DNA from: Squalus acanthias
Taxonomy: Eukaryota
Assembly (NCBI GenBank): GCA_030390025.1
Contig: CM059434.1
Coordinates: 104,780,001 to 104,844,000, forward strand
DNA length: 64,000 nucleotides
Reading direction: 5' to 3'
The notes under the pieces were generated by a model. It was not told the origin of the DNA. It searched no databases and saw only the letters and a list, made by a program, of their open reading frames with translations. The translations under genes and the position numbers were made by a program. Below are positions 5,721-62,815 of this stretch, one piece after another; positions within the stretch are counted from its first letter, which is position 1; each line of letters opens with the position of its first letter.

Positions 5721-6805
5721 GGGGGGAATTTTCACTGGAAAAAACGGGTGGGTTGGAGGCAGGGGGAAGTAAAAGTTGTAAAAATCTAAAGCCCGACCCA
5801 GCTGGCCCACTTTCACCTTTTACTCAGGCGGGATGGGGGGCGGACAGCCAACCCGCTGCCAAGAGGCAGGTTTAACTGCAGGCGGCCGGGGATCCCGGGG
5901 CTCGGGATTTCTGGCAGCTGCAACGAGCAAAGAACAGCCTGGGGGGGGGCAATCCTTGTGGGCCAGGAGGAGCAGGAGTGCTTCCTCCCAGCCCCCAAGC
6001 TCCCCCACCAGCAGCCCGCACCCCCTGGGGTCGGGGAATTGGACCCCCCCGGGATCGCAGCTCCCCCCCGGGGACAGGGATCGGACCCTCCCGGGGATTG
6101 GACACCCCCCCTGGGTCAAGAATTGACCCCTCCCGGGGATTGGACATCCCCCAGGTCAAGAATTGACCCCTCCCGGGGATTGGACATCCCCCAGGTCAAG
6201 AATTGACCCCTCCTGGGGATTGGACACCCCCTGGGTCAAGAATTGACCCCTCCCGGGGATTGGACATCCCCCCAGGTCAAGAATTGACCCCACTGGGGAT
6301 TGGACATCCTCCAGGTCAAGAATTGACCCCTCCCGGGGATTGGACATCCCCCAGGTCAGGAATTGACCCCTCCCGGGGATCGCGACTCAGCACCCCGGGT
6401 CAAGAATCGACCCCTCCTGGGGATTGGACCCCCCCCCCGGGGTTGGGGATCAGACCCCTCCCGGGGATCAATCTCACCCCCACCCCGGGTTGCCCCCCCC
6501 ACCTAAGCTATCCTCCCCCCCGGGCCTGGAACCCAACCGGCCCCCTCCCCCCACCCCACCCCCCGCCCCACCTCACCTGGACCCAGCACTTACCTGTTGC
6601 TGCAGTGTCCAACCTGCGTTCCCCACCCAATTAGAAGCCAGCCCGTCAATCAAGCTGACTTCCGGGCAGGGAACCCACTCATTGCGTCACGCGCACGCTG
6701 TGAGGTTAAAACTCCACAGTGTGCCGGGAAACCCAAAACTCCAGGATCCCGCCGTCTACCGGGTCCCCCCGCACCGTGTGGGTGGGAAACGGGAAAATTC
6801 CAGCC
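5721..6805. mobile_element. Harbinger-type MITE containing a minisatellite
   Basis: Imperfect TIRs GGGGGGAATTTTC / GAAAATTCCAGCC, AAA on both flanks, GC-rich non-coding interior, inserted in a CR1 remnant. Confidence 0.75.
6036..6470. repeat. 40-bp GC-rich minisatellite, about 10 copies
   Basis: Unit AATTGACCCCTCCCGGGGATTGGACATCCCCCAGGTCAAG is repeated exactly at 6121-6160 and 6161-6200, with variant copies on either side. Confidence 0.95.
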
Positions 6806-16907: not shown

Positions 16908-17665
16908 GGCCCGTATTTTCCGATCCCCATGGGTGCGTACGTGTTGTGTACACACCCGTAGGGACATCGCAAGTGCCGGTTTCAGGCATGTGAAGCGCAC
17001 GCGCTGAAAACCGGCACTTCCGATCTGTCAAGAATCCTCTTGATAGATCCTCCGCCTGCCCTGGAGATGGGCCTCTGCGGGTGGAGAGTTCCACTTTCTG
17101 CAGAACCTCCGCCCGCTGAAAACCCTTAAAAATCTTACGCCTGGTAAAAGCAGGCGTAAGGCCTGCTTTTACCAACATAAGAGTTTAAAAAATAATTTTT
17201 TTTCACTCATTTATAATTTAAAAATACTTTTAAAAAAGGTAAGTTTATTTTTAGCCCCGTAAAAAACTTTAATTTTTTTTCAAAAAATTTAATTTTTGTT
17301 TAAAATATTTAATTTAATGTAATTTTAACTAATTTAAAAAATGTGATTAAAAAAAAATTATTTAATGTTTTGATGTGTTTTTTGAGTGATCCCCATTCAT
17401 ACTTTTGACGGGTCTAAGCTGAGAGACCTGTCAAAAGTATGAAGGGGGATTCCCTTCTTCCATTGATTCCCCATAGCCCATGTAATCTCAGGGACACTTG
17501 CGAACCACCTGCACCCCTGGGATACCTGGGCCTCTGCGCGCGTGCACCAGGAGAGGCCCAGGAGCTGAAGTGTTCGGACCTGCGGAGCCCTCAGGTAAGG
17601 GCGTAGATTTTTTCCAGATCGGCGGCATCCGCACACAGGAAGCCTCCGATCAGAAAATACGGGCT
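16908..17665. mobile_element. Harbinger-type MITE
   Basis: TIRs GGCCCGTATTTTCCGATC / GATCAGAAAATACGGGCT; GC-rich ends with an AT-rich core (17180-17390). Confidence 0.8.
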
Positions 17666-18235
17666 AATGTCATTTACTTTCAAGGTCATTTTCTTAGAAT
17701 GGAAGCTACACCAAGTGAACAAGCCTCCTTCAGGGCAGTGCACAGCTTAAACTTCTCGTGTTTTATGTGTTTTTATGTTGAAGAATGCACATCTTGGTGT
17801 GAAGGCCATTCTGAAACCTAATATACTCCATTATACTGAGTTTGTTGGTACAGTATTGGATCAGTTTTCAGAGTAGAAATAATCAGAAACTCGTCTGTTA
17901 TTAATCAGAAGAAAATACATGGGTAGTAACCGAGGAAACATGAGTTTTAGAAACAACCAATAAATGTGAGGGTGCTGTGTTGACTGCCTTTATGCTACAG
18001 CCGGCACACATGGAAATCATTGTTAGATGCCTCATGGTATTTGTCTCATTTTCACCTCTACAGCTGAGATCAACATGACTTGAGCGGCACTACTTTTCGC
18101 TGGGGCTGGCAGGATGAAAATCTCAATTGATCACTGCCTCAAACACACAATGCGGAGATGCCGGTGTTGGACTGGGGTGGACAAAAGTGAGAAGTCGCAC
18201 AACACCAGGTTATAGTCCAACAGTTTTATTTGAAA

Positions 18236-18273
18236 TCACAAGCTTTCGGAGCGGCTGCTCCTTCGTCAGGTGA
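18236..18273 (-). ncRNA. Minimal type I hammerhead ribozyme (Penelope-associated), left arm
   Basis: Minus strand reads UCAC-CUGACGA-A-GGAGC(agcc)GCUCC-GAAA-GCUU-GUGA. Confidence 0.75.
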
Positions 18274-18836
18274 AGTGAAGGAATACAAAATCGACAAAGC
18301 ATATATAGATAGAGAACAATGCATGTGTAACTTACAATGGCAGACGACTACATTTAATCCTCCTGACTGTTTATCTGCCGAGGTGTGACAAAAGGCAATC
18401 AGGTCAGCCAGGAAGGCACCACATCAAAGACATAGCAAGATACAACTGAGACAATGAGGTGGGGTTACAGGGGGTCTAATGTGTCAAAAGCTGCAGTCGG
18501 TATGGAAAACGATAAACTTTAAAATTTTTACTTTTTTACTGGGAATCACAGTAAAAATTACTGATTCCCAGTAAAAAAGTAAAAATTTTAAAGTTTATCG
18601 TTTTCCATACCGACTGCAGCTTTTGACACATTAGACCCCCTGTAACCCCACCTCATTGTCTCAGTTGTATCTTGCTATGTCTTTGATGTGGTGCCTTCCT
18701 GGCTGACCTGATTGCCTTTTGTCACACCTCGGCAGATAAACAGTCAGGAGGATTAAATGTAGTCGTCTGCCATTGTAAGTTACACATGCATTGTTCTCTA
18801 TCTATATATGCTTTGTCGATTTTGTATTCCTTCACT

Positions 18837-18874
18837 TCACCTGATGAAGGAGCAGCCGCTCCGAAAGCTTGTGA
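18837..18874 (+). ncRNA. Minimal type I hammerhead ribozyme (Penelope-associated), right arm
   Basis: UCAC-CUGAUGA-A-GGAGC(agcc)GCUCC-GAAA-GCUU-GUGA: stem I UCAC/GUGA, 5-bp stem II, palindromic AAGCUU in place of stem III. Confidence 0.75.
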
Positions 18875-19049
18875 TTTCAAATAAAACTGTTGGACTATAA
18901 CCTGGTGTTGTGCGACGTCAAACACACAAGGGTTCATAGTAAAAGCATATACAGTTTTGGTTCAACCAATGACTCAGTGGGTTTATCCTGTGAGTAACCA
19001 AGCCAAACAAATCAAAACGGTCCCATGGTCTATTCTGTGCTGATCATCA

Positions 19050-19440
19050 ACAATAACTACTGGCACCTTTAATGATAGGAAAATGTCCCAAGACACAGTT
19101 AGCCATCAGACCAAATAGGATTAGAAGGAAGACTGGGGGAGATATCAGAAGGCACTGCTGAAGACGGTTTTGAAGATGAGAAGAGATGTAGCAAAATGAA
19201 GGGATGTATCAAGGGAGCTCTAGAATGTGAGAGCTAGATAGCTAAAGGTTCTGCTATAGATGGTAGAGTGGAGGGAGAGGGTACATGCAGCAGATCCCTG
19301 CTGAAAGAACAGAGTGTATAGGCAGGGATTTGATGTTATAAAGGTAGGGCGAATCAAGGCCATGGACAGGTTTGAAAATGAGGACAAGGATTTTGAAGTT
19401 CATGCACTGGGGAATGAGGCTCTGGAAATGGAACTGGGAT
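19050..19440 (-). mobile_element. L2 LINE 3' remnant
   Basis: Minus peptide NFKILVLIFKPVHGL.SPYL; similar to the other L2 remnants in the window. Confidence 0.6.
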
Positions 19441-19479
19441 GTCGTTTTTTTTAGGGATGGAGGGTGAGGGATTGGGGAC

Positions 19480-20477
19480 TCCTGCTCCTCAGCTTCTCGA
19501 CTGATAGGTGGTGGCAAGGGCTGTTCCCTCATGATGGCAAGGTTGTGCAGCATGCAGCATACCATGACAAATCTTGAGACCCTCGCAGCCGAGTTCTGCA
19601 GGGCTCCTCCACAGCGGTCCAGGCAGCGGAATCATTGCTTTAAGACACCAATGGTCTGCTCTATAAGATGGCTTTCGTTGTGTGCCTGCTGTGCATGTGT
19701 GCATGGGTTGCGAACTGGCGTCATGAGACATCTCATCAGCGGATAACCCTTGCCGCCCAGTAGCCACCCTTTGGTTTGCCGTGGTGGTTGAAATACAGTT
19801 GGCACAGAGAACTGCCGCAGAATGAACGCATCATGATTGCTGCCAGGATACCGGGCATTGACCTGCATGATGTGATGCCTGTGGTGACAAACCAGCTGCA
19901 CATTGAGGGAGTGAAATCCCTTTCAGTCAGGTACATGGTAGAGTTGACATGAGGCGCACACAAAGCAATGTGTGTGCATTCAATGGCACCCTACACCATG
20001 GGGAAGCCTGCAATCCTTGCAAATCCTTGTGCTCACTCCCCCTACTTGTCTCTGGCAAGAGAGAATGAGATGAAGTTATCTCTCTTTGCATCAAGAGCCT
20101 CAGTGACCTCCCTTATGCAACAGTGCACTGAAAACTGAAAGATGTTGCTTATATTTCCAGCAGCAGCTTCGAAGGAGCCAGACGCATAGAAGTTCAGAGC
20201 CACAGTGACCCTGACAGCCACTGGCAATGCAGTCCATACCCGGCTCTGAGGTTGGAGTTGTGGCTGCAGCAGTTGGCAGATTTCAGGGATGAGCTCTTTA
20301 GTGAAGCACAGATGTCTCAAGCATTGGTCATCACTGAAGTTTACGTACGAGAATTGTTCCCTTAACACCTTTCTATTGAGAGCCCTTCTCCTCCTCCTCC
20401 TCCCTCATCTATCAGCTTGTCCTGCTCTGCATGGCCTCATGCTCAATGCCAAGAGGAAGGCCTACTAGTCCACCTAT
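19480..20477 (-). pseudogene. Harbinger DDE transposase pseudogene
   Basis: Frameshifted pieces: VAVRVTVALNFYASGSF, QLVCHH..VNARYPGSNHDAFILRQ, GWLLGGKGYPL (catalytic D changed to G), IEQTIGVLKQ, VCCMLHNLA. Confidence 0.92.
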
Positions 20478-20510
20478 GTCTGTTAGCAACTGATCTGTGT
20501 AGAAGCCTTT

Positions 20511-29255: not shown

Positions 29256-29713
29256 GCGAGGATCACAATATTGAATTATATAACAAGGGGATTGCTATTG
29301 TACATCTAGAATTTGGATAGCGAAAGTATACTCCTAATTGTGAGTGATACTGGTCCACCTATGGAAGAGACCAATGATGGAGGAGGTGGACCTGTGTGGG
29401 AGCGGCAGCGGGACCTGAGAGAAGGCGGAGCGGCCATAAAGGAGCACTGCAGAGGAGTGCTGCGAGTTGGGAAAGAGTCTGAGAGCGGGAGCAGTCAAAC
29501 AACAACAACTGCGAAACCGCTAAAGTGATGTCACAACCAGGGAAGGAGCTGATTGGTAAGTAGGACCTGGTGAATATTTCTACAGTCCGGTCGTTGAAGT
29601 AAAAGTAAGGTCTCTAGTTTAGAGTAAGTAGTGTTTAAAGTGAAGTAAGGTCCGTAGTGTATTTAATATTCTTTAATTTAAAGGAAGTAAAGGGAGTAAG
29701 TTAAGGTTAGGAC

Positions 29714-30663
29714 ATGGCAGGGCAGCTCGGCAGCGTGGAGTGCTCCTCCTGTGCTATGTGGGAAGTCAGGGACAATTTCAGTGTCCAGGGCGAACACATG
29801 TGCAGGAAGTGTCTCCAGCTGCAGCTACTCGAAATCTGCATTTCAGAGCTGGAGCTGTGGCTGGAGTCACTGTGGAGCATCCGCGAAGCTGAGATCTTCG
29901 TGGATAGCACGTTTAACGAGGTGGTCACACTGCAGGAAAAGAGTGCACAGGCAGACAGGGAATGGGTGACCGCCAGACAGAGTAAAAGAACTAGGAAGGT
30001 AGTGCAGGAGTCCCCTGGGTCCATCTTTCTCTCCAACAGATTTTCTGTTTTGGATACTGCTGGGGGAGATGGTTTCTCAGGGGAATGCAGCAAGAGCCAA
30101 GTCTGTGGCACTATGAGTGGCTCAGCTGCACGGGGGGGGAGGAAAAAGAGTGGGAGAGCAATAGTGATAGGGGATTCAATCGTAAGGGGAACAGATAGAC
30201 GTTTCTGTGGCCGCAGACGTGACTCGAGGATGGTATGTTGCCTCCCTGGTGCCAGGGTCAAGGATGTCACTGAACGGCTGCAGGGCATTCTGAAGGGAGA
30301 GGGCGAACAGTCAGAGGTTGTGGTTCACATTGGTACCAATGACATAGGTTAAAGAGGGATGAGGTCCTGCAACAAGAATTTAGGGAGCTAGGTAGCAGAT
30401 TAAAAAGCAGGACCTCAAAGGTTGTAATCTCTGGATTACTCTCGGTGCCACGTGCTAGTGAATATAGGAACAGGAGGATAGAGCAGATGAATGCGTGGCT
30501 AAAGAGTTGGTGCAGGAGGGAGGGCTTTAGTTTCCTGGATCACTGGGTCTGCTTCTGGGGAAGGTGGGACCTGTACAAGTCGGACGGGTTGCACCTGAAC
30601 CGGAACGGGACCAACATCCTTGGGGGGAGGTTTGCTAGTACTGTTGAGGGGGGTTTAAACTAA
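29714..30663 (+). pseudogene. CR1 ORF1 (zinc-finger/leucine zipper plus SGNH/GDSL esterase), frameshifted near 30350
   Basis: CSSCAMW..CRKC, heptad leucines, VIGDSIVR, HIGTND and DGLHL motifs across ORFs 29714-30352 and 30445-30663. Confidence 0.92.
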
Positions 30664-30782
30664 CTTGGCAGGGGGATGGGATACGGAGTGGAGCTATAGT
30701 AGGGGGTGATGCACAGCCAAATATAGAGGAAAAAACAAGTCAGCCTGGAAGGCAGAGCAAATCTGTAACAGCACAAGGGAGT

Positions 30783-33594
30783 ATGGCAAGGCTGGATGGC
30801 ATTTATTTTAATGCAAGGAGTCTTGCAAGTAAGGCAGATGAATTGAAGGTGTTGATGAACACTTGGGAGTATGATATTGTTGCTATCACAGAGACATGGT
30901 TGAGGGAGGGTCAGGACTGGCAGCTCAATATTCCGGGGTATAGAATCTTCAGGCGAGACAGAGGGGGGTGTAAAAGAGGAGCGGGTTGTCGCAATATTAA
31001 TCAAGGAGTCAATTACTGCTGTAAGGAGTGATGATATCTTAGCAAGTTCCTCTAATGAGGCCATATGGGTAGAACTTAAAAACGAAATGGGGGCAAGCAC
31101 TTTGCTGGGAGTGTACTATAGGCCCCCAAACAGTCAGGGGGAGATAGAGGAACAGATATGTAGGCAAATCTCAGAGAAGTGTAGAAATAATAGGGTAATA
31201 ATAGTAGGGGTTTTCAACTTCCGCAATATTAACTGGGATAGTCAGAGTGTGAAAGGCTTAGAGGGTGCGGAATTCTTAAAGTGCATCCAGGAGAGCTTTC
31301 TGAGCCAGCATGTAGAAAGTCCTACAAAAGAGGGGGCGGTACTGGACCTAATTCTAGGGAATGTAGCCAGGCAAGTGGTAGAAGTGTCAGTAGGAGAGCA
31401 TTTTGGTGACAGTGACCATAATTCGGTGAGATTTAAAGTAGTCATGGAAAAGGACAAAGCTGGACCGGAAATAAAGGTTCCAAATTGGGGGAAGGCCGAT
31501 TTGAATATGATAAGGCAGGATCTGGCCAAAGTGGATTGGGATAAGCTACTTGTAGGAAAATCCACATCAGAGCAATGGGAGTCTTTCAGAAAGGAAATAG
31601 AGAGAGTACAACGCCAACATGTTCCCGTAAAGGTTAAGGGTGGGACCAACAAGCCCAGGGAACCCTGGATGTCAAGGGATATACAAGAATGGATTAGGAA
31701 AAAAAGAGAGGCTTTTGGCAGATACAAATGACTAAAAACAGTGGAAGCCCTAGAGGAGTATAGAAAGTGCAGGGGGTACATAAAAAAGAAATTAGGAGAG
31801 CGAAGAGGGGGCATGAAAAAACACTGGCGGTCAAAATAAAGGAAAATCCCAAGGTGTTTTATAAGTATATTAAGGGCGAGAGGATAACCAGGGAAACAGT
31901 AGGGCCCATTAGGGACCAAAGTGGCAATCTGTGTGTAGAGCGGAAGATGTGGGTGAGGTTTTAAATGATTATTTGGCATCTGCGTTCACGATGGAGAAGG
32001 ACGATGTAGGCATAAAAATCAGGCAGGGGGATTGTGATATACTTGAACAAATTAGTATTGAGAGGGAGGAGGTACTAACGGTTTTAGCGAGCTTAAAAGT
32101 GGATAAATCCCCAGGCCCAGATGAGATGTATCCCAGGCTGATGTGTGAGGCAAGGGAGGAGATTGCAGGGGCTCTGACACAAATTTTCAGAACCTCTCTG
32201 GCCACAGGGGAGGTGCCAGAGGACTGGAGGACAGCTAACGTAGTACCATTATTCAAGAAGTGTAGTAGGGATAAACCAGGGAATTACAGGCCAGTGAGCC
32301 TAACATCAGTGGTAGGGAAATTATTGGAAAAAATTCTGAGGGACAGAATTAGTCTCCACTTGGAGAGGCAAGGATTAATCAAGGATAGTCAGCATGGCTT
32401 TGTCAGGGGGAGATCATGTCTAACCAATTTGATTGAATTTTTCGAGGGGGTGACTAGGTGTGTGGATGAGGGTAGTGCAGTTGATGTAGTCTACATGGAC
32501 TTCAGTAAGGCTTTTGACAAAGTCCCGCATGGGAGACTGGTCAAGAAGATAAGAGCCCATGGGATCCAGGGCAATTTGGCACATTGGATCCAAAATTGGC
32601 TTAGTGGCAGGAGGCAGAGGGTGATGGTCGAAGGTTGTTTTTGTGACTGGAAGCCTGTGTCCAGTGGCGTACCGCAGGGATCGGTGCTGATCCTTTGCTG
32701 TTTGTAGTGTACATTAATGATTTAGATATGAATGTAGGAGGTATGATCAGTAAGTTCGCAGATAACACGAAAATTGGTGGAGTGGTAAATAGCGAGGAGG
32801 GAAGCCTCAGGCTACAGGACGATATAGACGGGTTGGTCAGATGGGCAGAACAGTGGCAAATGGAATTTAACTCTGAAAAGTGTGAGGTGATGCATTTTGG
32901 GAAGTCTAACAAGGCAAGGGAATACACAATGAATGGTAGGATCCTAGGAAGGACAGAGGATCAGAGGGACCTTGGTGTGCATGTTCATAGATCCCTGAAG
33001 GCAGCAGGACAGCTAGATAAGGTGGTTAAAAAGGCATATGGGATACTTGACTTCATTAGCTGAGGCATAGAATATAAGAGCAGGGAGGTTATGATGGAGC
33101 TGTACAAAACGTTAGTTAGGCCACAGCTGGAATACTGTGTGCAGTTCTGGTCGCCACACTATTGGAAGGATGTGATTGCATTGGAGAGGGTGCTGAGGAG
33201 ATTCACCAGGATGTTACCTGGGCTGGAGCACTTCAGCTATGAAGAGAGACTGGACAGGCTGGGGTTGTTTTCCTTAGAGCAGAGAAGGCTGAGGGGGAAC
33301 CTGATTGAGGTGTACAAAATTATGTGGGGCATAAATAGGGTAGATAGAAAGGAACTTTTCCCCTTAGTAGAGGGGTCAATAACCAGGGGGCATAGTTTCA
33401 AGGTAAGGGGCAGGAGGTTTAGAGGGGATTTGAGGAAAAACTTTTTCACCCAGAGGGTGGTTGGAATATAGAACTCACTGCCTGAAAGGGTGGTAGAGGC
33501 AGGAACCCTCACAACATTCAAGAAGCATTTAGATGAGCACTTGAAACGCCATAGCATACAAGGCTACAGACCAAGTGCTGGAAAATGGGATTAG
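30783..33594 (+). pseudogene. CR1 ORF2 (AP endonuclease plus reverse transcriptase), multiple frameshifts and stops
   Basis: YFNARSL, AITETWL, YRPPN, SDHN, KSPGPD, NYRPVSLTS, DFSKAFDKVPH, GVPQGSVL; the catalytic FADD motif reads FADN; start position approximate. Confidence 0.95.
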
Positions 33595-43029: not shown

Positions 43030-43795
43030 ACATAGAAACATAGAAGATAGGAGCAGGTGTAGGCCATTCAGCCCCTCGAGCTTGCTCCGCCATTTAATGA
43101 GATCATGGCTGATCATGCAAATTCAGTACCCTGTCCCTGCTTTCTCCCCATATCCCTTGATCCCTTTAGCCTTAAGAAATATATCTAACTCCTTCTTGAA
43201 TATATTTAATGAATTGGCCTCAACTGCCTTTTGTGGTAGAGAATTCCACAGGTTCACCACTCTCTGGGTGAAGAAATTCCTCCTCATCTCAGTCCTAAAT
43301 GGCTTACCCCTTATCCTTAGACTGTGACCCCTGGTTCTGGACTCCCCCACCATCGGGAACATCCTTCCTGCATCCAGTCTGTCTAGTCCTGTTAGAATTT
43401 TATAAGTTTCAATGAGATCCCTTCTCATTCTTCTAAACTCCAGCGAATATAAGCCCAATCGACCCAATCTCTCCTCATACGTCATTCCTGCCATCCCAGG
43501 TATCAGTCTGGTGAATCTTCGCTGCACTCCCTCCATGGCAAGAACATCCTTCCTCAGATAAGGCGACCAAAACTGCACACGATACTCAAGGTGTGGTCTC
43601 ACCAAGGCCCTGTACAACTGTAGCAAGACATCGTTGCTCCTGTACTCGATTGCCTTCTTAACCGCCTGCTGCACCTGCATGCTTACCTTCAGCGACTGGT
43701 GTACAAGGACACCCAGGTCTCGTTGCACTTCCCCTTTTCCCAATCTATTGCCGTTCAGATAATAATCTGCCTTCCTGTTTTTGCCACCAAATTGC
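43030..43795 (-). mobile_element. CR1 3' fragment, same subfamily as 1501-2040
   Basis: ORF 43123-43821 has a nearly identical C-terminus to ORF 1565-1936; small internal deletion (KKA|IEYRS). Confidence 0.95.
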
Positions 43796-46115: not shown

Positions 46116-46755
46116 GCCTGGACTTTCCTGAAACAAGGTAACCTGCAAATTGCGTCAAAAATTGGCACTTTTTTCCAGCAATGGTTTGATGGCTTTACAC
46201 TTTAATTTTCATGCATAAAATGTCCTTAGAATTGTCATTAGCTTCCGCCAGAACGTAAAATTCCGCATAAAACAAGTGGAAATCAGCGTAAGCAATTGAG
46301 GCCCAAGGAAAGTGCCATATTCGTTCATCAGCTCCCTCTTTATGCACAAAAATTAAAGTTTAAAGCCATCAAACCATCTTTTATGAACATTAGGCATGCA
46401 AGGATGTTTTTCAATTTTTAATGCAAATCATTATTATGCCATAAAAATGCATTCAAAGATACAGAAAATACATTTCAGGACTCAATGAGGAGAAAACAAA
46501 GAAATCGCTGAAAAAAAATTGCCAAATCTTAGGCATAAATTTAAAGCCCATGCATAACAGGCGTAAATTCAGGACATTTGCGTGAGCTGAAGATTTTGGT
46601 GGAAGTTTTGTTAAATTAGCGGAAATTTCAGCATAGCACAAAAACAGAAGTCAATCACTTTTGAATTTCGAATTTCCTCGATCTTTTGTGCCGGAAATTG
46701 GCACTAAGCTGTAATGATGCTGTGTTTTGGGGGAAATTTACAGAAATTTCCAGGA
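46116..46755. mobile_element. Old putative MITE
   Basis: Imperfect TIRs GCCTGGACTTTCCTG / CAGAAATTTCCAGGA, ATG on both flanks. Confidence 0.45.
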
Positions 46756-50305: not shown

Positions 50306-51101
50306 ATGGTAGAATTAATTGAAAGCTTTTAGTTCATCATGTACAAACTCTATTTTTAACAAGTGACTTGTGAGAAATGACTGGAATATAAAAGAACTGC
50401 ATAATAATGCATAATAATGCATTAACACTTCAGAAACATCACTCAGTTACACAGTTATGCATCGACAAACAATCCAAAAGCCCAAGTTGAGCTGAAAGAG
50501 GCATATCTATTCGTGCAATTTGTATTAATTTTAAAGTTTTCAACGTATTAGCCTTTCCCTCATGTCACAGGAGCAGCGGCTTTCCAATGGCGCTGACGTG
50601 CTGTACGTCCACATAAGTAATTAGAATATTAATCACAATGCAACCAGACAACCAACAAATATAAAGTGCTGTAGTTCTTTAGTTCACAGTATTAAAAGAA
50701 TTGAACAAGAATGGGTATCCATATTTCCAACTTCAATCACTTCCATTAAAAAACATGGTCTTCTTGAACCAGCGCACCCCCCATGTAACATGTCAGAAAT
50801 GCAGCACTTATTCACAAGTGCAGAAAAACACATACACAATTTACGTCTCCGAATTAAAAACAAAAAGCAGGAAAAGCTATGATTTAACAGAAATAAACAT
50901 TCCTCTTTCTTCCTGGACAGGAGAACCAATCAGACTGACTTGGAAATGTTTACTAATATGTTGACGTAAAGATGCAAATTTCGCTTCTAATGTTTTTCTC
51001 TCAAAAATTCTCCACAATATTAATCCCTGCTCGTATCACGAAAAGTGTTGAATTATTTTAGGTACTTCCCAATTAAATAGTGGGAAACAAACTTCATTGT
51101 A

Positions 51102-51465
51102 CAGGAAACTCTTTATTAACCGGCACCCAAATATCCGGAAATCTCTCTTAACCGGCAAAATTCTTGAGTAGGTAACCGGGGTTTTCCTTCATCTCTCGTT
51201 TAAAATTAACTTTAAAAAAAACCCCGAGGCGTTTGCCTTGTATCGGAGCGTGTAGATTGGGAGGGGAATGTGCAGCCCGGGTAGGCAGCGGACACGACAG
51301 ATGGTCAGCTGGCGGTTCCCGGGGAGACGGAGCTCCGAATGCAGGCGCATGTCAATGTGTACGGGGCTCTCGTACGTTGGGAGATATTACTCTCCATTAT
51401 CCGGACTTTTTGATTAACCGGCACCACGCCGGTCCCGTCGGTGCCGGTTAATAAAGAGTTTCCTG
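51102..51465. mobile_element. Tc1/mariner (pogo/Tigger-like) MITE, 364 bp
   Basis: Perfect 26-bp TIRs CAGGAAACTCTTTATTAACCGGCACC, TA TSD, internal TTAACCGGCA subterminal repeats. Confidence 0.92.
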
Positions 51466-52259
51466 TACTCTGAATTTTTTAATCTCCTATTTCAAACATT
51501 TATACCAAACCAAAATTGTACATTATCAGTTTAATCAAAGTATTTTCTGTGTCTTTCTCAATAAATAGCTTCCGGCAATTTTTATACATCATTACATAAC
51601 TCGTGTTTCTAGTAACACTCCACTAAACGTTTAAGAGGAAATCTATATTTACATTATTCCTGGGACTTGTTCGGACTATAGAACGACAGACAAAATAAAA
51701 TAGTTTGTGTTTTTCCCCTTTTATGGTTCTCTTTCTAAACGTCTTAATGATACTTTTTATTGACTTAAAAAAAAATATGTAACTCCTACAAATCCTCCTG
51801 CCCGCCCCCTCCTCAACAGTATGGTTGCATGTTTGTGTAAAGCTCCTCACTTCAATTGATCGCTCAAAATCAATATTTTGAGAAATTTCAATTTTAAAAT
51901 GTTTTAAGCATTTCAGACCCTCTTTAAAAATGTTTGGACATCGAGACCTGGTTGAAATTGTTTAGATGTTTCTACCAAAATCATATTCGAAACTTAGGGG
52001 GGAAAAAAGTGTTTTTAACACTAATTTTTTGTGAAAAGTTCATTAAAAATCTTTAAATTCTTTCAAGTCTCGTTGCAGCTTTGACAGAAGTTGCTCCAGC
52101 TTTCTCTTTCCCTCTTCAATGCTGTCATTAAACATACAACAGAAAAATAATAAAATAAATTCTAATTCCAAACGGAGCTCAAATAAGAAAGTAAATAAAG
52201 TGGTTAAACTTCCTAAGCATGCGGTGAGGTTATCTACCCCCAGTCTTGGCGATGAGTTG

Positions 52260-52337
52260 GGATCTCTCCCCCCCCCATTTCTCTTTCTCCCCAGTCTCTT
52301 TCTCTCTCTCTCTCCCCCCGTCTCTCTCTCTCTTCCC

Positions 52338-52374
<37 letters not shown>

Positions 52375-53290
52375 CATCTCTCTCTCTCTCTTCCCCAGTC
52401 TCTCTCTCTTCCCCAGTCTCTCTCCCTCTCCCCAAGTCTCTCTCTCTCCCAGACTCTCTCTCTCCCCCGTCTCTCTCTCCCCCCAGTCTCTCTCTCTCTC
52501 CCAGACTCTCTCTCCCCCGTCTCTCTCTCCCCCCGTCTCTCTCTCCCCCAGTCTCTCTCTCTCCCAGTCTCTCTCTGCCCCTAGTCTCTCTCTCTCTTCC
52601 CCAGTCTCTCTCTCTCTTCCCCAGTCTCTCTCCCTCTCCCCAAGTCTCTCTCTCTCCCAGACTCTCTCTCTCCCCCGTCTCTCTCTCCCCCCAGTCTCTC
52701 TCTCTCTCCCAGACTCTCTCTCCCCCGTCTCTCTCTCCCCCCAGTCTCTCTCTCCCCCAGTCTCTCTCTCTCCCAGTCTCTCTCTGCCCCTAGTCTCTCT
52801 CTCTCTTCCCCAGTCTCTCTCTCTCTTCCCCAGTCTCCCTCTCTCTCCCTAGTCTCTCTCTCCCAGTCTCTCTCTCCCCCCAGTCTCTCTCTCTCCCAGT
52901 CTCTCTCTCTCCCCCCAGTCTCTCTCTCTCCCAGTCTCTCTCTCTCCCAGTCTCTCTCTCCCCCCAGTCTCTCTCTCTCTCCCAGTCGCTCTCTCCCCCA
53001 TCTCTCTCTCCCCCATCTCTCTCTCCCCACAGTCTCTCTCCCCCAGTCTCTCTCTCCCCCAGTCTCTCTCTCTCTTCCCCAGTCTCTCTCTCTCTCCCCA
53101 TCTCTCTGTCTCTCCCCATCTCTCTCTCTTCCAGTCTCTCTCTTCCCCAGTCTCTCTCTCTCTCTTCCCTGTCCCTCTCTCTCTCATCCCCAGTCTCTCT
53201 CTTTCTCTCCCAGTCGCTCTCTCTCCCCCTCAGTCTCTCTCTCTCTCCCAGTCTCTCTCTCCCCCCAGTCTTTCTCTCTCTTCCCCCACT
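52260..53290. repeat. About 1-kb CT-rich compound satellite (CCCCAGTCTCTCTCT units)
   Basis: Almost pure pyrimidine + strand; 209-bp higher-order duplication. Confidence 0.97.
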
Positions 53291-53299
53291 CTCTCGCTC

Positions 53300-57640: not shown

Positions 57641-58905
57641 TTGTACTTATTAGCCTCGTAATCGTCTTCCATTACCTATGGGCAGCTCTCTTTGGGGCAC
57701 TGTAGCACTCTGTGTTAAAAAATATCAATCTCCTTTCTCTTCCCTTACTTCTCACAGCAGTATTTGAAGCGCAACATCAGGAAACCTAAAGGCTATCTGC
57801 CCTCTTGCTGATCTGGCAGCCATTCTGTCATGTCAGACCTTCCTTTCCTGATCATGAATGGTAATGATAATGCCTATCCCTTTAAGCTGTTGCAGCCTTT
57901 AAATCCTGCAGCAGTGTGCTATGTCCCACCCCCTAACTGGGACAGCTCATAATTAGAGATATTTCTAACACCAGGAGCATGCCCAAAATATTATATTGAG
58001 GCTGGACGTGGCAATTCCAGCAGGGTCAGTGCCCGTCACAATGGGCAATACGAACCACGACTGTCTCACTTCCGGTTGGGCTCGCACTTGATCAGAAAAT
58101 CCAGCTTCCATGCCTTGGTTCATGTATGAAGATAGGCCACTTGGGCACTCGTGTACCTCAGCATGGAGTCAGCACCTTCAAGAGAGAAGAAGGGGAGGGG
58201 AGTAAACTTAGGGAAAAGAAGTAGAAAAGAATAAATAAAATACATATAAATAAGTAAAAAGAGCTGGTAATTGAGACAGGATTTCAATGCCACTCTCTTT
58301 CTTACTTGGGAATTCAGTGTTCCAGTACTGTGCTGACCAGGCTGTTCCCTACTTAGTAGGTTTCACTTGTAACTGTTAAATAAGAGGCAAGGGGCTTTAC
58401 ATATTCTTTAACCACTAAGTGTTAAAGTTGTAGCATTCAGTATGCCAGAATTTAGAATTCCTGCAGTTAGTAGCATTGGTCCAAATATTTTCTTCAGTTA
58501 ACTGGCAGCAATGTTATATTTTTTCTGTACTCGGATTGAATTCTAAGGGGGAAAAATTAGGTTGCACCCCATTTGGGGCGCAAATATCGTCTGGACGCAA
58601 ATATTAGCGCCTGGCGCTAATTATCGCCACTGACTGGAAACTTCACTTTTACCGCCCCAGGAGGTGAGTGGAGCGCTAAATCAGGCGCTGCACACCTGTC
58701 TTAAGGCGCAAAGGCCGAGCACTGAGGCGCTAACTCAGAGCGCGAGCGCAGCGCAGGTGCTGCCAGTTAGCGAGGGAACACAGACACACTGGCGCCGGCC
58801 AGTTCTTAAAGCGGGGGGGGCCAACTTGCTCCCCAGCCACACCCTGCTCATTGCAGCCTTGAATCTCGGCCTGGAGAGACCTGTGAATCCATTTTGCTGC
58901 CAAGG

Positions 58906-60725
58906 ATGGAGAGGGTGAGAGAACGAGCTCATCGCTTCACCGAGCGGGCCTTGGATGCTCTGGTTGGCGCGGTGGAGCGCAGAAGATGTATACTCTTCCC
59001 TGAGAGTGGCAGGAGGCCTTTGCCACGCGAGTACAGAAGAGTGTGGAGGGAGGTGGCTCAGAGCGTCTCCTCCAGGAGCATGGTGCTCAGGACCCATGTT
59101 CAATGCCGCAAAAAGTTCAACGACCTCACTCGGGTCGTCAGGGTGAGTGGCTTTTTCTCAATACCTCTCCATCCCTCCATCTCAACCTCACTCTATGGCC
59201 AGAGGGTCTTAAAACCCCAATGCACAACACTCATCCAACACCTATGGCCCTTTCATGAAACACACACACACATTCCACACTTTGCATACAGTAAGGGCTA
59301 TTCACCTATGGGAGGCACATCAGGCAAGACCATGGCTGCATATAGTAAGGGCTATTCACCTATGGGAGGCACATCAGGCAAGACCATGGCTGTATATTTA
59401 CTCAAATGCTGTCCTTTTTCTTACAGGCCAAGCTGGCGCATAATCGGAGACAGCAGCAACGGACAGGTGGAGGGCGGCCTCAGCTGCAACCCCTCAGCGA
59501 TCTTGAGGAGCGCGTCCACAGGATTGTGGCAAGCCGGGTGATCGGTCCCGTCGCCACTGGAGACGCCGACCCCGTTCTGGACAGCAATGGTAAGGTCATC
59601 ACCTTTTTGTCCTCTGTCCTTCCACTTGTCCCACACAACACCAGCCTTTGACACTTTCAATCCAACTTGCTAACTCGCTGCACTTATTCCTCCCTTACTG
59701 CCACCCTGTCCTCACGCTAAAGCCACTCTTGTACCTCCCTGCTTTCAGATGGTGATTAACCAGCTGAGGAGACGGGCCCTAAAGCTGCCACTGGGAGTGA
59801 AGCTGCAGCCGAGGAGGAAGAGGAAGTCGGAGCATCAGTGCCACCCTCTCCCGAGGAAGCCCATGCCCACACTGGGAACACGCCTTCCCTGGAGGGAAGC
59901 AGGGGGGAAGGGTCTGATGAGGATGAAGCTCCAGGACCCAGCGGGCTGCAGCAACGCCATGGGGGTAGGGAAGAACGGGGGCCTTCTCCCCAGAGGGAGA
60001 GTATGCCAGAGACTCCTACTGCAATGGACGCAGAGGAGGAGCGGCTGATCGCAGAAATGAACACCCAGGCGGTGGGCATGCACACTGAGCTCATGGGTGC
60101 AGTGGGAAGGGTGCCCGAATGCATTGAGTCACTGGCAAGGAGTGTGGAGCACTTCGCTGTAGCACAGGCGGATGCCACACTAACGCTTAGTGCTGCAATT
60201 CAGTCACTGGCTGCCGTGATCCCATCTCTGACTGCTCTCATGCAGACTCAGATTGAGGCCACGCGAGCACAGACTGCTGCCAACCTCGATGGTTCGTTCA
60301 CATGTCCCCGGGGCTCTCACCGCGCCGCAGCAGGCCAGCAATCTGTTCTCCAGCAGATTGCTCCGGATGCTGAAGTGCTGCCCCGTGGGAGTGCCAGTGT
60401 GTCGGGCGAGCAGGGAGTTGCTGTCCTCTCTCACGATGACAGCATTCCTGCTGCCAACACTGTCACTTCTCCACTGCACTTGCCACCGCCTGTAGGACAG
60501 ACTGCTGCCGCCCATGCAGAGTTGGTGCAGTCTGCAGCCGTGCCCTCCAGGCCCAGAACTGGTCGAGGCCGTCCTTCAGGGGCATCTGCAGTGTCAGGGT
60601 CTGACGATCAGCAGCCTTCCACCAGCCTTGCTGCAGCCACTGAGGTCCCATTACGGAGGAGCAGTAGGGTTAGAAGGGGGGAAGTGCGCAAGGGAAGGAG
60701 ATCATCCTCGAAGGGCAAAAAGTAG
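58906..60725 (+). CDS. Harbinger Myb/SANT-like DNA-binding protein; predicted exons 58906-59142, 59427-59589 and 59749 (or 59764)-60725
   Basis: RFTERALDALV..WREVAQSVS..RTHVQCRKKFNDL; GT-AG sites with compatible phases 0 and 1; basic NLS-like C-terminus; in-frame TAA at 59757 if the first acceptor is used. Confidence 0.85.
59283..59390. repeat. 54-bp tandem duplication in Myb intron 1
   Basis: Two copies of TGCATA(C/T)AGTAAGGGCTATTCACCTATGGGAGGCACATCAGGCAAGACCATGGC. Confidence 0.95.
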
Positions 60726-60944: not shown

Positions 60945-62177
60945 TTATTGGTGCCTTGGCCGGCTTAGGGGTTGCGTGCTGGGTTCATTGATGTTGTTAG
61001 CAATGGCAGAAGCCATTTCCACAGCAGGGGCTATCAGCCGTTGACGGACGGCCCTTGCAGTTTCACCATTGTGGGCCGCCCTCCCGCCTTGGTGCTGCTG
61101 ATGATCATCCTCCTCGTCCTCTTCCTCCTCTTCCTCCTCCTCCTCTGGTGGTGCTCCAAGGCCTGGTGGCATTGGCTGGGTCCTGACGATTGCCATGTTA
61201 TGCAACATGCAGCACACAACTACGAAGTTGGATACTCGCTCAGGCGAGTACTGCAGGGCTCCTCTAGAATGGTCGAGACAGCGGAACCGTTGCTTCAGCA
61301 CGCCGATTGTGCGCTCAATGATGTTCCTGGTAGCTTGATGGCTCTCATTGTACCGCAGCTCAGCAGGGGTGTTGGGCGTACGGAGCGGTGTCATCAGCCA
61401 GGTGCTCAATGGATACCCCTTGTCCCCGAGAAGCCAACCAACTGGCTGATGCGGTGCCTCGAAAAGTTCTGCCACAGTAGTCTGGCGCAGGATGAAAGCA
61501 TCGTGGCAGCTGCCAGGATAGTGGGCATTGACAGCGAGTATCAGCTGTCTGTGGTCACAGACCAACTGAACATTCAAGGAATGGAACCCCTTTCTGTTCC
61601 GGAAATCCTCGGCATTCTCATGTGGAGCACGCAAAGCCACATGCGTGCAGTCAATGGCGCCCTGCACCATGGGGAAGCCCGCTATCCTCGCAAAGCCCAG
61701 AGCGCGGTCACGCTGCTTGCCTGGGGTCATGGGGAAAGAGATGAACTCTCGTCTCCTTTTAAAGAGGGCATTTGTGACCTGCCGGATGCAGCAATGCACC
61801 GCGAACTGGGAGATATTGGCGAGGTCCCCAGCAGCAGCTTGAAATGAGCCAGTAGCATAGAAGTTGAGAGCCACTGTGACCTTCACTGCCACCGACAGAG
61901 ACGTCCTGGACCTCAGTTGAGGCTGCAGATCTGGCTGCAGCAGGTGGCAGAGCTCAGTGACCACCTCCTTGCTGAATCGCAGCCTTCGCAAACACAGCTC
62001 CTCAGACATATGAATGTAGGAGAGCTGTTCATGATATACCCTGGGAGGGTAAGCTCTCCTGTACAGACGCCTATTGGCCCTCCTCCGTCTGGCCATCATT
62101 GCCACTCTCTCTCTGCGTCTCTGTGTCCTCCGATTCAGCTGGAGCAGGACGACGCCCCCAATCAGTGCAGCCCCCAT
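60945..62177 (-). CDS. Harbinger (HARBI1-family, DDE_Tnp_4) transposase, uninterrupted, about 410 aa
   Basis: From ATG 62177 (MGAALIG): VALNFYATGSFQ, GAIDCTHV, NRKGFHSLNVQLVCD, YPGSCHDAFI, LLGDKGYP, RNIIERTIGVLKQRFRCL, CCMLHN. Confidence 0.95.
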   Translation of the reverse strand: MGAALIGGVVLLQLNRRTQRRRERVAMMARRRRANRRLYRRAYPPRVYHEQLSYIHMSEELCLRRLRFSKEVVTELCHLLQPDLQPQLRSRTSLSVAVKVTVALNFYATGSFQAAAGDLANISQFAVHCCIRQVTNALFKRRREFISFPMTPGKQRDRALGFARIAGFPMVQGAIDCTHVALRAPHENAEDFRNRKGFHSLNVQLVCDHRQLILAVNAHYPGSCHDAFILRQTTVAELFEAPHQPVGWLLGDKGYPLSTWLMTPLRTPNTPAELRYNESHQATRNIIERTIGVLKQRFRCLDHSRGALQYSPERVSNFVVVCCMLHNMAIVRTQPMPPGLGAPPEEEEEEEEEDEEDDHQQHQGGRAAHNGETARAVRQRLIAPAVEMASAIANNINEPSTQPLSRPRHQ

Positions 62178-62815
62178 AGTCTCTTTGCAAGCAAAGTAAT
62201 GAAGGACAGCAACCAAAGTACTAGCGAAGTTAGGATCAGTAGGCAAAACTACCTCACAAAGCGTTGAGTCAATGCAGAAGTCTCTCTTTCTCTCTCTCCG
62301 AATCTCTCTCTCTCTCTCAGAACGAGTGGTGCATAAATGTCAACCACAGAAAAAGACAGGAAGAGGCCCCCTTTAAGTAGCGCCCCCCCCAGCCCCACAG
62401 CGATTGATAGCGTTCCAGTCTTCCGGTCGTTGGATGCGCCAGGCGGTAAGGCAGGGGGCGCCACTCAATTTCCGCTCCGGGGCACCACAAGGGCGTTGCA
62501 CCATGGAATGACGTCACAATCTGCGCGCGCAGGTGGTCGCAGCGGTAAAGTTTAGCGCCGCCGCACAATGTCTAGTTAAGTTCCCGAGCAGCGCAAACAT
62601 CGCTGCGCCCGGGCGTTAGCGGCTTTGCGCCCCATTAGCGCCCTCTTAAGGCGCTAACGGGAGGCGCAACCAACTGAATTTTTACCCCTAAATGTTTTAG
62701 TGTTATTAATTTGGACAGATGCTATTTTAACCGGACTGTGGGCACATCACAGAATTACCCCTTTCCTGCCTACGAAAGTCTCAATTATGACTGACAAGTA
62801 CCCACCACATATAAT

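Follow-up and report, generated by a model that had tools for sequence, protein, structure and literature searches.

Here, we describe a 767-bp insert at positions 18151-18917 of a 64,000-nt stretch of Squalus acanthias DNA (contig CM059434.1 of assembly GCA_030390025.1), which we refer to as the window. Based on direct analysis of the sequence, most of the insert is a 723-bp palindrome made of two 355-bp arms and a 13-nt spacer, and this palindrome is real at the sequence level. In the order of their coordinates, the features of the insert and its immediate borders are as follows.

18139-18150, plus strand: left copy of the 12-bp target-site duplication, TCAAACACACAA, an exact 12-mer with two copies in the window
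18151-18193, minus strand: tail of 43 nt, by which the left terminal repeat is extended at its 3' end; reverse transcription putatively had its distal start at the outer end of the tail
18194-18548, minus strand: left arm of 355 bp, a probable 5'-truncated Penelope-like terminal repeat (pLTR), with the minus strand as the element sense
18236-18273, minus strand: minimal type I hammerhead motif with the core CUGACGA from 18269 and a predicted cut at 18240/18239, from a descriptor search with the published consensus
18273-18307, minus strand: mirror of the putative TATA and initiator pair at 18803-18837, directed outward (left)
18549-18561, no strand: 13-nt centre, CAGTAAAAATTAC, hairpin-forming and likely a record of snap-back synthesis
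18562-18916, plus strand: right arm of 355 bp, a probable inverted pLTR copy without the tail, ending 70 nt after the hammerhead A9
18803-18837, plus strand: putative TATA (18803) and initiator-like TCACTT (18832), a pattern match just upstream of the hammerhead, directed outward (right)
18837-18874, plus strand: minimal type I hammerhead motif with the core CUGAUGA, an extra A, and a predicted cut at 18870/18871, from the same descriptor search with the published consensus
18917, plus strand: single extra base (G) of the right junction; the next 2 nt are common to the element and the target
18918-18929, plus strand: right copy of the 12-bp target-site duplication, TCAAACACACAA, an exact 12-mer

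A previous reading of this locus from sequence only (the sequence-only reading) had reported 355-bp arms with one mismatch, a 13-nt spacer, a 43-nt tail on the left arm only, and a 12-bp duplication framing the insert. We recovered all of these elements. The arms differ at exactly one position (18265, G, versus 18845, T, on the plus strand), the spacer occupies 18549-18561, the right side has no partner for 18151-18193, and TCAAACACACAA is present in the window in two copies on the plus strand and none on the minus strand. The extra G at 18917, which lies between the right arm and the duplication, was absent from that description. Because the bases adjoining the two copies differ on either side, the duplication is exactly 12 bp; a 12-mer shared in such geometry arose by chance in 34 of ~200,000 random position pairs. 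The divergence between the arms is 1/355 (95% interval, 0.007-1.6%), which suggests that the insertion is young, although homogenization from arm to arm would look alike. The arm contains nine CpGs, and the lone mismatch is a CpG/TpG difference, of which the simplest reading is the decay of a methylated C in the right arm. Palindromes that are nearly perfect and have short spacers form a known class of artefact, and the palindrome could have arisen as a fold-back during assembly or library preparation. However, the mirror symmetry ends at a boundary that makes biological sense, unique sequence flanks the insert on both sides, the 12-bp duplication frames the insert, and the lone difference is a CpG transition; we consider an artefact extremely unlikely. 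In the 64-kb window, no second copy of the arm was found, the best other match having an E value of 0.07, and at the insert locus there is no tandem array, the units being inverted.

In agreement with the earlier statement that the insert has no reverse transcriptase (RT) or GIY-YIG ORF, a Pfam search with six frames of the tail, left arm, and spacer, read through with X, returned no family at E≤0.05, and the only match beyond this cutoff was Cox20 (E 0.087). As judged from its reading frames, this copy encodes no protein. Using the frame that runs from the ribozyme motif to the tail, we searched 1.84 billion proteins without a profile and obtained two matches, P0001 and P0002. P0001 (E 1.6e-14) is a 4,818-aa repeat protein whose score was summed over 15 weak stretches, and it was rejected as an artefact. 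P0002, a weak match (80 aa; E 9e-4), is 57% identical over 37 residues, has 27/56 identical residues in a second alignment, and runs on into a Met two residues past the end of the insert's tail. From its sequence, P0002 looks like the translation of a related repeat; because it matches the frame and continues beyond the tail end, it indicates that a related sequence exists elsewhere. The extension of P0002 had no match in Pfam, and P0002 led to no longer protein in protein searches. Searches of protein sets for an RT or GIY-YIG domain tied to the arms yielded none among 3 candidates, none among 13, and then only P0002 among 3. A search of the ESM Atlas was uninformative (best value, 0.76), two scans of prokaryote genomes with exact patterns, meant to detect contaminating copies, gave 0 and 0, and searches of plasmids and phages for copies of the arm gave no match. 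In literature searches, as judged by title or the start of the abstract, no paper dealt with the family of this insert, which, with the limited coverage of these searches, is weak evidence.

Each arm carries a candidate ribozyme. Read outward, both arms contain UCAC CUGAYGA A GGAGC AGCC GCUCC GAAA GCUU GUGA (18837-18874 on the plus strand; 18273-18236 on the minus strand), and in the right-arm motif these parts make up stem I (UCAC/GUGA), stem II (GGAGC/GCUCC), GAAA, and a palindromic AGCU. The descriptor for a minimal type I hammerhead had two matches in the window, both of them in the arms, and none in 100 exact dinucleotide-shuffled windows. The cores start at 18841 (plus strand) and 18269 (minus strand), 572 bp apart and on opposite strands. 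The single mismatch between the arms (18845) falls on N7, the variable position of the core, and because this position is free, both motifs still conform to the consensus. The consensus for the minimal hammerheads of metazoan Penelope-like elements (PLEs) includes one additional base following A9, pairing of G10.1 with C11.1, and a palindromic 15.2/16.2 (Cervera and de la Pena 2014, PMC4209133), and its further traits are CUGANGA, UH, a short helix I, a U-rich 5' flank, and an AU-rich 3' flank (PMC4209133). The arm motifs satisfy every element of this consensus, including GAAA and both flanks. In addition, dual minimal hammerheads located ~100-700 bp apart on opposite strands are already in print (PMC4209133), and the distance between the cores described here lies within this spacing. 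In the same source, a motif associated with lamprey Poseidon has a stem I identical to that of the arm motif; the exact arm motif is absent from the 56 parsed representatives in one of its supplementary files, in which cartilaginous fish are also absent (PMC4209133).

None of the 31 Rfam matches up to E 10 in the region 18000-19100 is to a hammerhead family, which counts against a canonical ribozyme. The microRNA and small RNA matches in Rfam are below threshold and were rejected as artefacts of the palindrome; those to microRNAs are far under the gathering threshold (best, 86 of 180 bits) and occur on both strands, which reflects the palindromic sequence. In folding calculations with the 38-nt fragment, the active hammerhead dimer had an energy of -21.7 kcal/mol compared with -22.6 kcal/mol for two open monomers and -30.7 kcal/mol for the free co-fold; according to this model, the active dimer is energetically unfavoured in the fragment. 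This agrees with the low activity on record for the minimal hammerheads of PLEs (PMC4209133). Because the two motifs lie on opposite strands, dimerization in cis is excluded.

The hammerheads orient the arms head-to-head with their 3' ends outward, and this is the commonest arrangement among PLEs (Arkhipova 2013, PMC3846280). Relative to the hammerhead, the end of the tail lies 113 nt past A9 and 89 nt past the predicted cut, and the right arm ends 70 nt after A9. For Poseidon of Anolis carolinensis (PAc), Frangieh 2024 (PMC11167929) reported that the RT initiates 111-118 nt into an ORF beginning at the hammerhead A9, that a second start site is one tail-length away, that uncleaved RNA is the template, and that the protein, a predicted dimer, nicks and extends both strands with the two starts bracketing the tail. 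As in PAc, the hammerhead in the insert is upstream of a pair of end points on either side of the tail, the distal end being at 113 nt from A9 here versus 111-118 nt in PAc, and, when read by eye, a TATA-like run and a pyrimidine-rich stretch precede the ribozyme in both. In contrast, no sequence similarity between PAc and the insert is evident by eye, and while the ORF of PAc starts at A9, the insert has no ATG after the core, making the logic of an A9 frame inapplicable. Moreover, Anolis Poseidon prefers AT-rich ATT sites (PMC11167929), whereas the target here is CA-rich. We note that the tail can pair with the arm just upstream (18151-18240, minus strand) in two alternative 8- to 9-bp helices; this pairing resembles the stem-loop at the Anolis start site, but it folds no better than shuffled sequences (z, -0.7 to -1.2).

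An adjacent, inverted, truncated copy and a one-sided tail of 30-40 bp are general features of PLEs (Craig 2021, PMC8557442), and Arkhipova 2013 (PMC3846280) describes a tail of 31 bp and a pLTR motif of TATA plus TCACT, along with, in Adineta, duplications of 8-10 bp and short palindromes where the inverted copies meet. The premise of the sequence-only reading that PLEs often insert as inverted pLTRs with one short tail agrees with these descriptions (PMC8557442, PMC3846280). With endonuclease-containing (EN+) PLEs (Penelope/Poseidon, Neptune, plus Nematis), the insert has in common the head-to-head terminal repeats, the one-sided tail, the short target duplication, the short palindrome at the inverted junction, and the TATA and TCACT-like motif in the repeat. 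It differs from them in having neither an ORF nor a tandem part, its 43-nt tail is 3 nt above the published range of 30-40, and its duplication is 12 bp versus 8-10 bp in Adineta. Because the hammerheads and the distance to the tail end match those of PLEs, we conclude from the sequence that the insert is likely a single 5'-truncated PLE insertion with two head-to-head terminal repeats. The Penelope-like assignment, which had been proposed without knowledge of the ribozyme motifs, is strengthened by the presence in each arm of a PLE-type minimal hammerhead that is placed and oriented as in terminal repeats, and by a tail that ends, by distance from the ribozyme, where the Anolis Poseidon RT initiates. 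With all PLE readings taken together, we are highly confident that the insert is of Penelope-like origin. The insert had also been taken for a non-autonomous element; however, the sequence is equally compatible with truncation of an autonomous element and with membership of a non-autonomous family.

Two other kinds of mobile element share some of these features. The long inverted arms and the target duplication would suit a DNA transposon of the foldback or MITE type, which ends in long inverted repeats, and DNA-transposon remnants are close by (a Harbinger-like DDE fragment at 19635-19922). However, the arms fail to abut the duplication, from which they are separated by the 43-nt tail on the left and 1 nt on the right, and the occurrence of a PLE-type hammerhead (0/100 shuffles) together with a PLE-type end spacing would have to be a coincidence, such that we give this origin hardly any credence. 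It is also conceivable, but improbable, that the insert belongs to a dedicated non-autonomous family whose members move as inverted doublets lacking an ORF, in the manner of either a retrozyme or a MITE. The arms hold no coding remnant (Pfam, six frames), and non-LTR retrozymes derive from pLTRs and have a mean length of 363 bp in the single cartilaginous fish sampled (bioRxiv 10.64898/2026.07.22.740005); like the insert, they are ORF-less, hammerhead-bearing, PLE-derived, and built on a unit of a few hundred bp. Retrozymes, however, as described in the same preprint, are direct, head-to-tail tandem repeats whose two ribozymes share a strand, whereas the insert is head-to-head with the ribozymes on opposite strands. 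Furthermore, folding predicts that the transcript of such a doublet would be a closed duplex in which the ribozyme and the partner of the RT start region are buried, and a second copy is absent from the window.

How PLEs acquire inverted repeats and tails is still a question in the literature (PMC8557442, PMC11167929), and the centre of the palindrome bears on this question. As stated in the sequence-only reading, the spacer repeats adjacent arm sequence; within 40 nt of the centre we found a match of 10 nt, a length that 24 of 20,000 shuffled spacers also reached. The spacer also forms the mini-hairpin that had been noted, but its extent as GTAA/TTAC was too small: the actual hairpin is CAGTAA-AAA-TTACTG, which extends the pairing of the arms across a 2-nt bulge (CA). 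A second hairpin, of 9 bp, forms between the spacer and the end of the left arm, and the two hairpins are nested. The suggestion of fold-back priming fits the self-priming model of Arkhipova 2013, which is based on junction palindromes (PMC3846280), and it fits the templated spacer, but another model is possible. Because the arms end within 13 nt of one another, the spacer is templated and hairpin-forming, and junction palindromes underlie the published model, we favour fold-back self-priming over twin priming and consider it the probable source of the second arm.

According to the fold-back explanation, which as a whole we hold with moderate confidence, the insertion would have proceeded in five steps. 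First, a GIY-YIG/RT protein, encoded by an element at another genomic site and acting in trans, would have cut the target with a 12-nt stagger. Second, with the top-strand end at 18150 as primer, reverse transcription would have set out from the distal start of an element RNA that had escaped cleavage; the left end would carry the tail because priming began at this distal start, 113 nt past the hammerhead A9. Third, synthesis would have halted at ~400 nt, and the cDNA end would have snapped back on short local repeats, giving the 13-nt centre, and been copied on itself to generate the second arm. Fourth, this copy would have stopped at the tail boundary, and its junction with the remaining target end would have gained one extra base. 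Fifth, one CpG in the right arm would later have decayed to TpG. Two points argue against fold-back: alone, it gives no reason why the second arm stops exactly one tail-length short, and a 2-nt CA slip at the centre has to be assumed. Also, the spacer could be native element sequence instead of a product of snap-back.

In twin priming, the PLE origin is the same, and both target nicks would have been used as primers, that of the top strand for synthesis from the distal start, with the tail included, and that of the bottom strand for synthesis from the proximal, tail-less one. This is supported by the Anolis Poseidon protein, which nicks both strands and starts at two sites bracketing the tail (PMC11167929), and it accounts directly for the end of the right arm. 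The right junction, where 2 nt in common with the element follow one mismatch, also speaks for it, if weakly (~1/16 by chance). The two cDNAs would have stalled near the same place and been fused by 2-nt TG/CA microhomology, and if they were joined at TG/CA, the centre would need no slip. However, two independent cDNAs must then halt no more than 13 nt apart, at a point ~280 nt upstream of the ribozyme, and twin priming by itself leaves the spacer's repeat of adjacent sequence unaccounted for. Moreover, among the papers listed by a literature search on twin priming in Penelope elements, none, as judged by title and the start of the abstract, dealt with the mechanism of PLEs. We regard twin priming as a serious but less probable alternative, and fold-back self-priming as the more probable origin.

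If the insert is transcribed, the outcome would depend on where transcription begins. The putative TATA and initiator pair in each arm was chosen as a pattern post hoc and arose in 37 of 5,000 shuffled arms; nine such pairs are present in the window, and the same arrangement is known from Pen2a of Adineta (PMC3846280). Transcripts from these putative internal promoters would, in this model, run outward and have no double strand, and only a transcript spanning both arms would be expected to give ~355 bp of dsRNA. In folding calculations, a transcript across both arms formed one long duplex (~-700 kcal/mol), in which, on the plus strand, the mismatch between the arms becomes a G-U pair and the whole ribozyme is paired to the opposite arm. 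Because the ribozyme is predicted to be fully paired, such a read-through RNA would be a Dicer/ADAR substrate and not a ribozyme. In Drosophila, siRNAs have been mapped to Penelope inverted repeats, and rearranged Penelope copies with long inverted repeats likewise yield dsRNA (PMC3681739). The right arm also contains a GTAAGT at 18775 that is followed by 68 nt without AG, the first later AG being at 18848-18849 (18775-18849, plus strand). The Penelope element of Drosophila has a 75-bp intron (Schostak 2008); however, we rejected a 75-nt intron at 18775-18849, the donor occurring in 473 of 5,000 shuffles and the acceptor lying inside the ribozyme core.

By itself, the locus is one more PLE insertion of an ordinary kind in animal genomes, and the literature already covers inverted repeats and tails, palindromes at the junction, hammerheads paired on opposite strands, and siRNAs derived from such repeats. 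It is a tidy test case in that, in this minimal copy, hardly any mutation has touched the two junctions, the centre, or the ribozyme. The short, AT-rich centre of the palindrome makes cruciform extrusion plausible. Should palindromes of such near-perfection be common in this genome, dsRNA, instability of the surrounding DNA, and errors of assembly might be traced to them. Going further, we speculate, while considering it doubtful, that the locus is a clean natural snapshot of the integration step of PLEs, that the outer ends of the insert correspond to the two RT start sites seen in vitro, that ORF-less hammerhead palindromes are a common product in this genome and a comparison of their centres would discriminate between self-priming and twin priming, and that each copy plants two outward promoters together with a Dicer/ADAR substrate that silences its own family.

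The insert lies in non-coding DNA with LINE-type RT fragments and remnants of Harbinger-like transposases, and in its flanks, no recognizable repeat is interrupted by it. Pfam searches with 18 of the 59 frames of ≥120 aa and with all 50 frames of 70-119 aa starting at 8,000-30,000 identified neither a GIY-YIG domain nor a host-gene domain, and the RT matches in the frames of the window are to LINE-type fragments far from the insert. A small palindrome is located 700 bp left of the insert (17389-17450; 27-nt arms, 93% complementary, 8-nt loop) and is unrelated to it in sequence. On the other side, ~330 bp to the right, is a decayed Harbinger-like transposase (19254-20480, minus strand) that is ~72% identical to a copy at 61-62 kb. 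There, an uninterrupted 464-aa frame (60945-62339, minus strand) matches DDE_Tnp_4 (E 6e-41) and is convergent with a Myb/SANT frame (58810-59541, plus strand; E 2e-8); together, these two frames may be a little-decayed PIF/Harbinger-like transposon pair. Other inverted arms in the window are MITE-like at 51075-51492 (53 nt, 83%, 312 nt apart) and of 39 nt at 46181-46377 (92%, 119 nt apart). The window also contains a GC-rich minisatellite with ~10 copies of a 40-bp unit (6042-6481) and a 1-kb TC-rich satellite with an internal duplication of ~208 bp period (52295-53299). Finally, a disrupted LINE, of which endonuclease and RT fragments match Pfam Exo_endo_phos_2 and RVT_1, is present at 29700-33500 on the plus strand, and 3' fragments related to it are found at 1498-2029 and 43030-43561, 92% alike and in inverted orientation.
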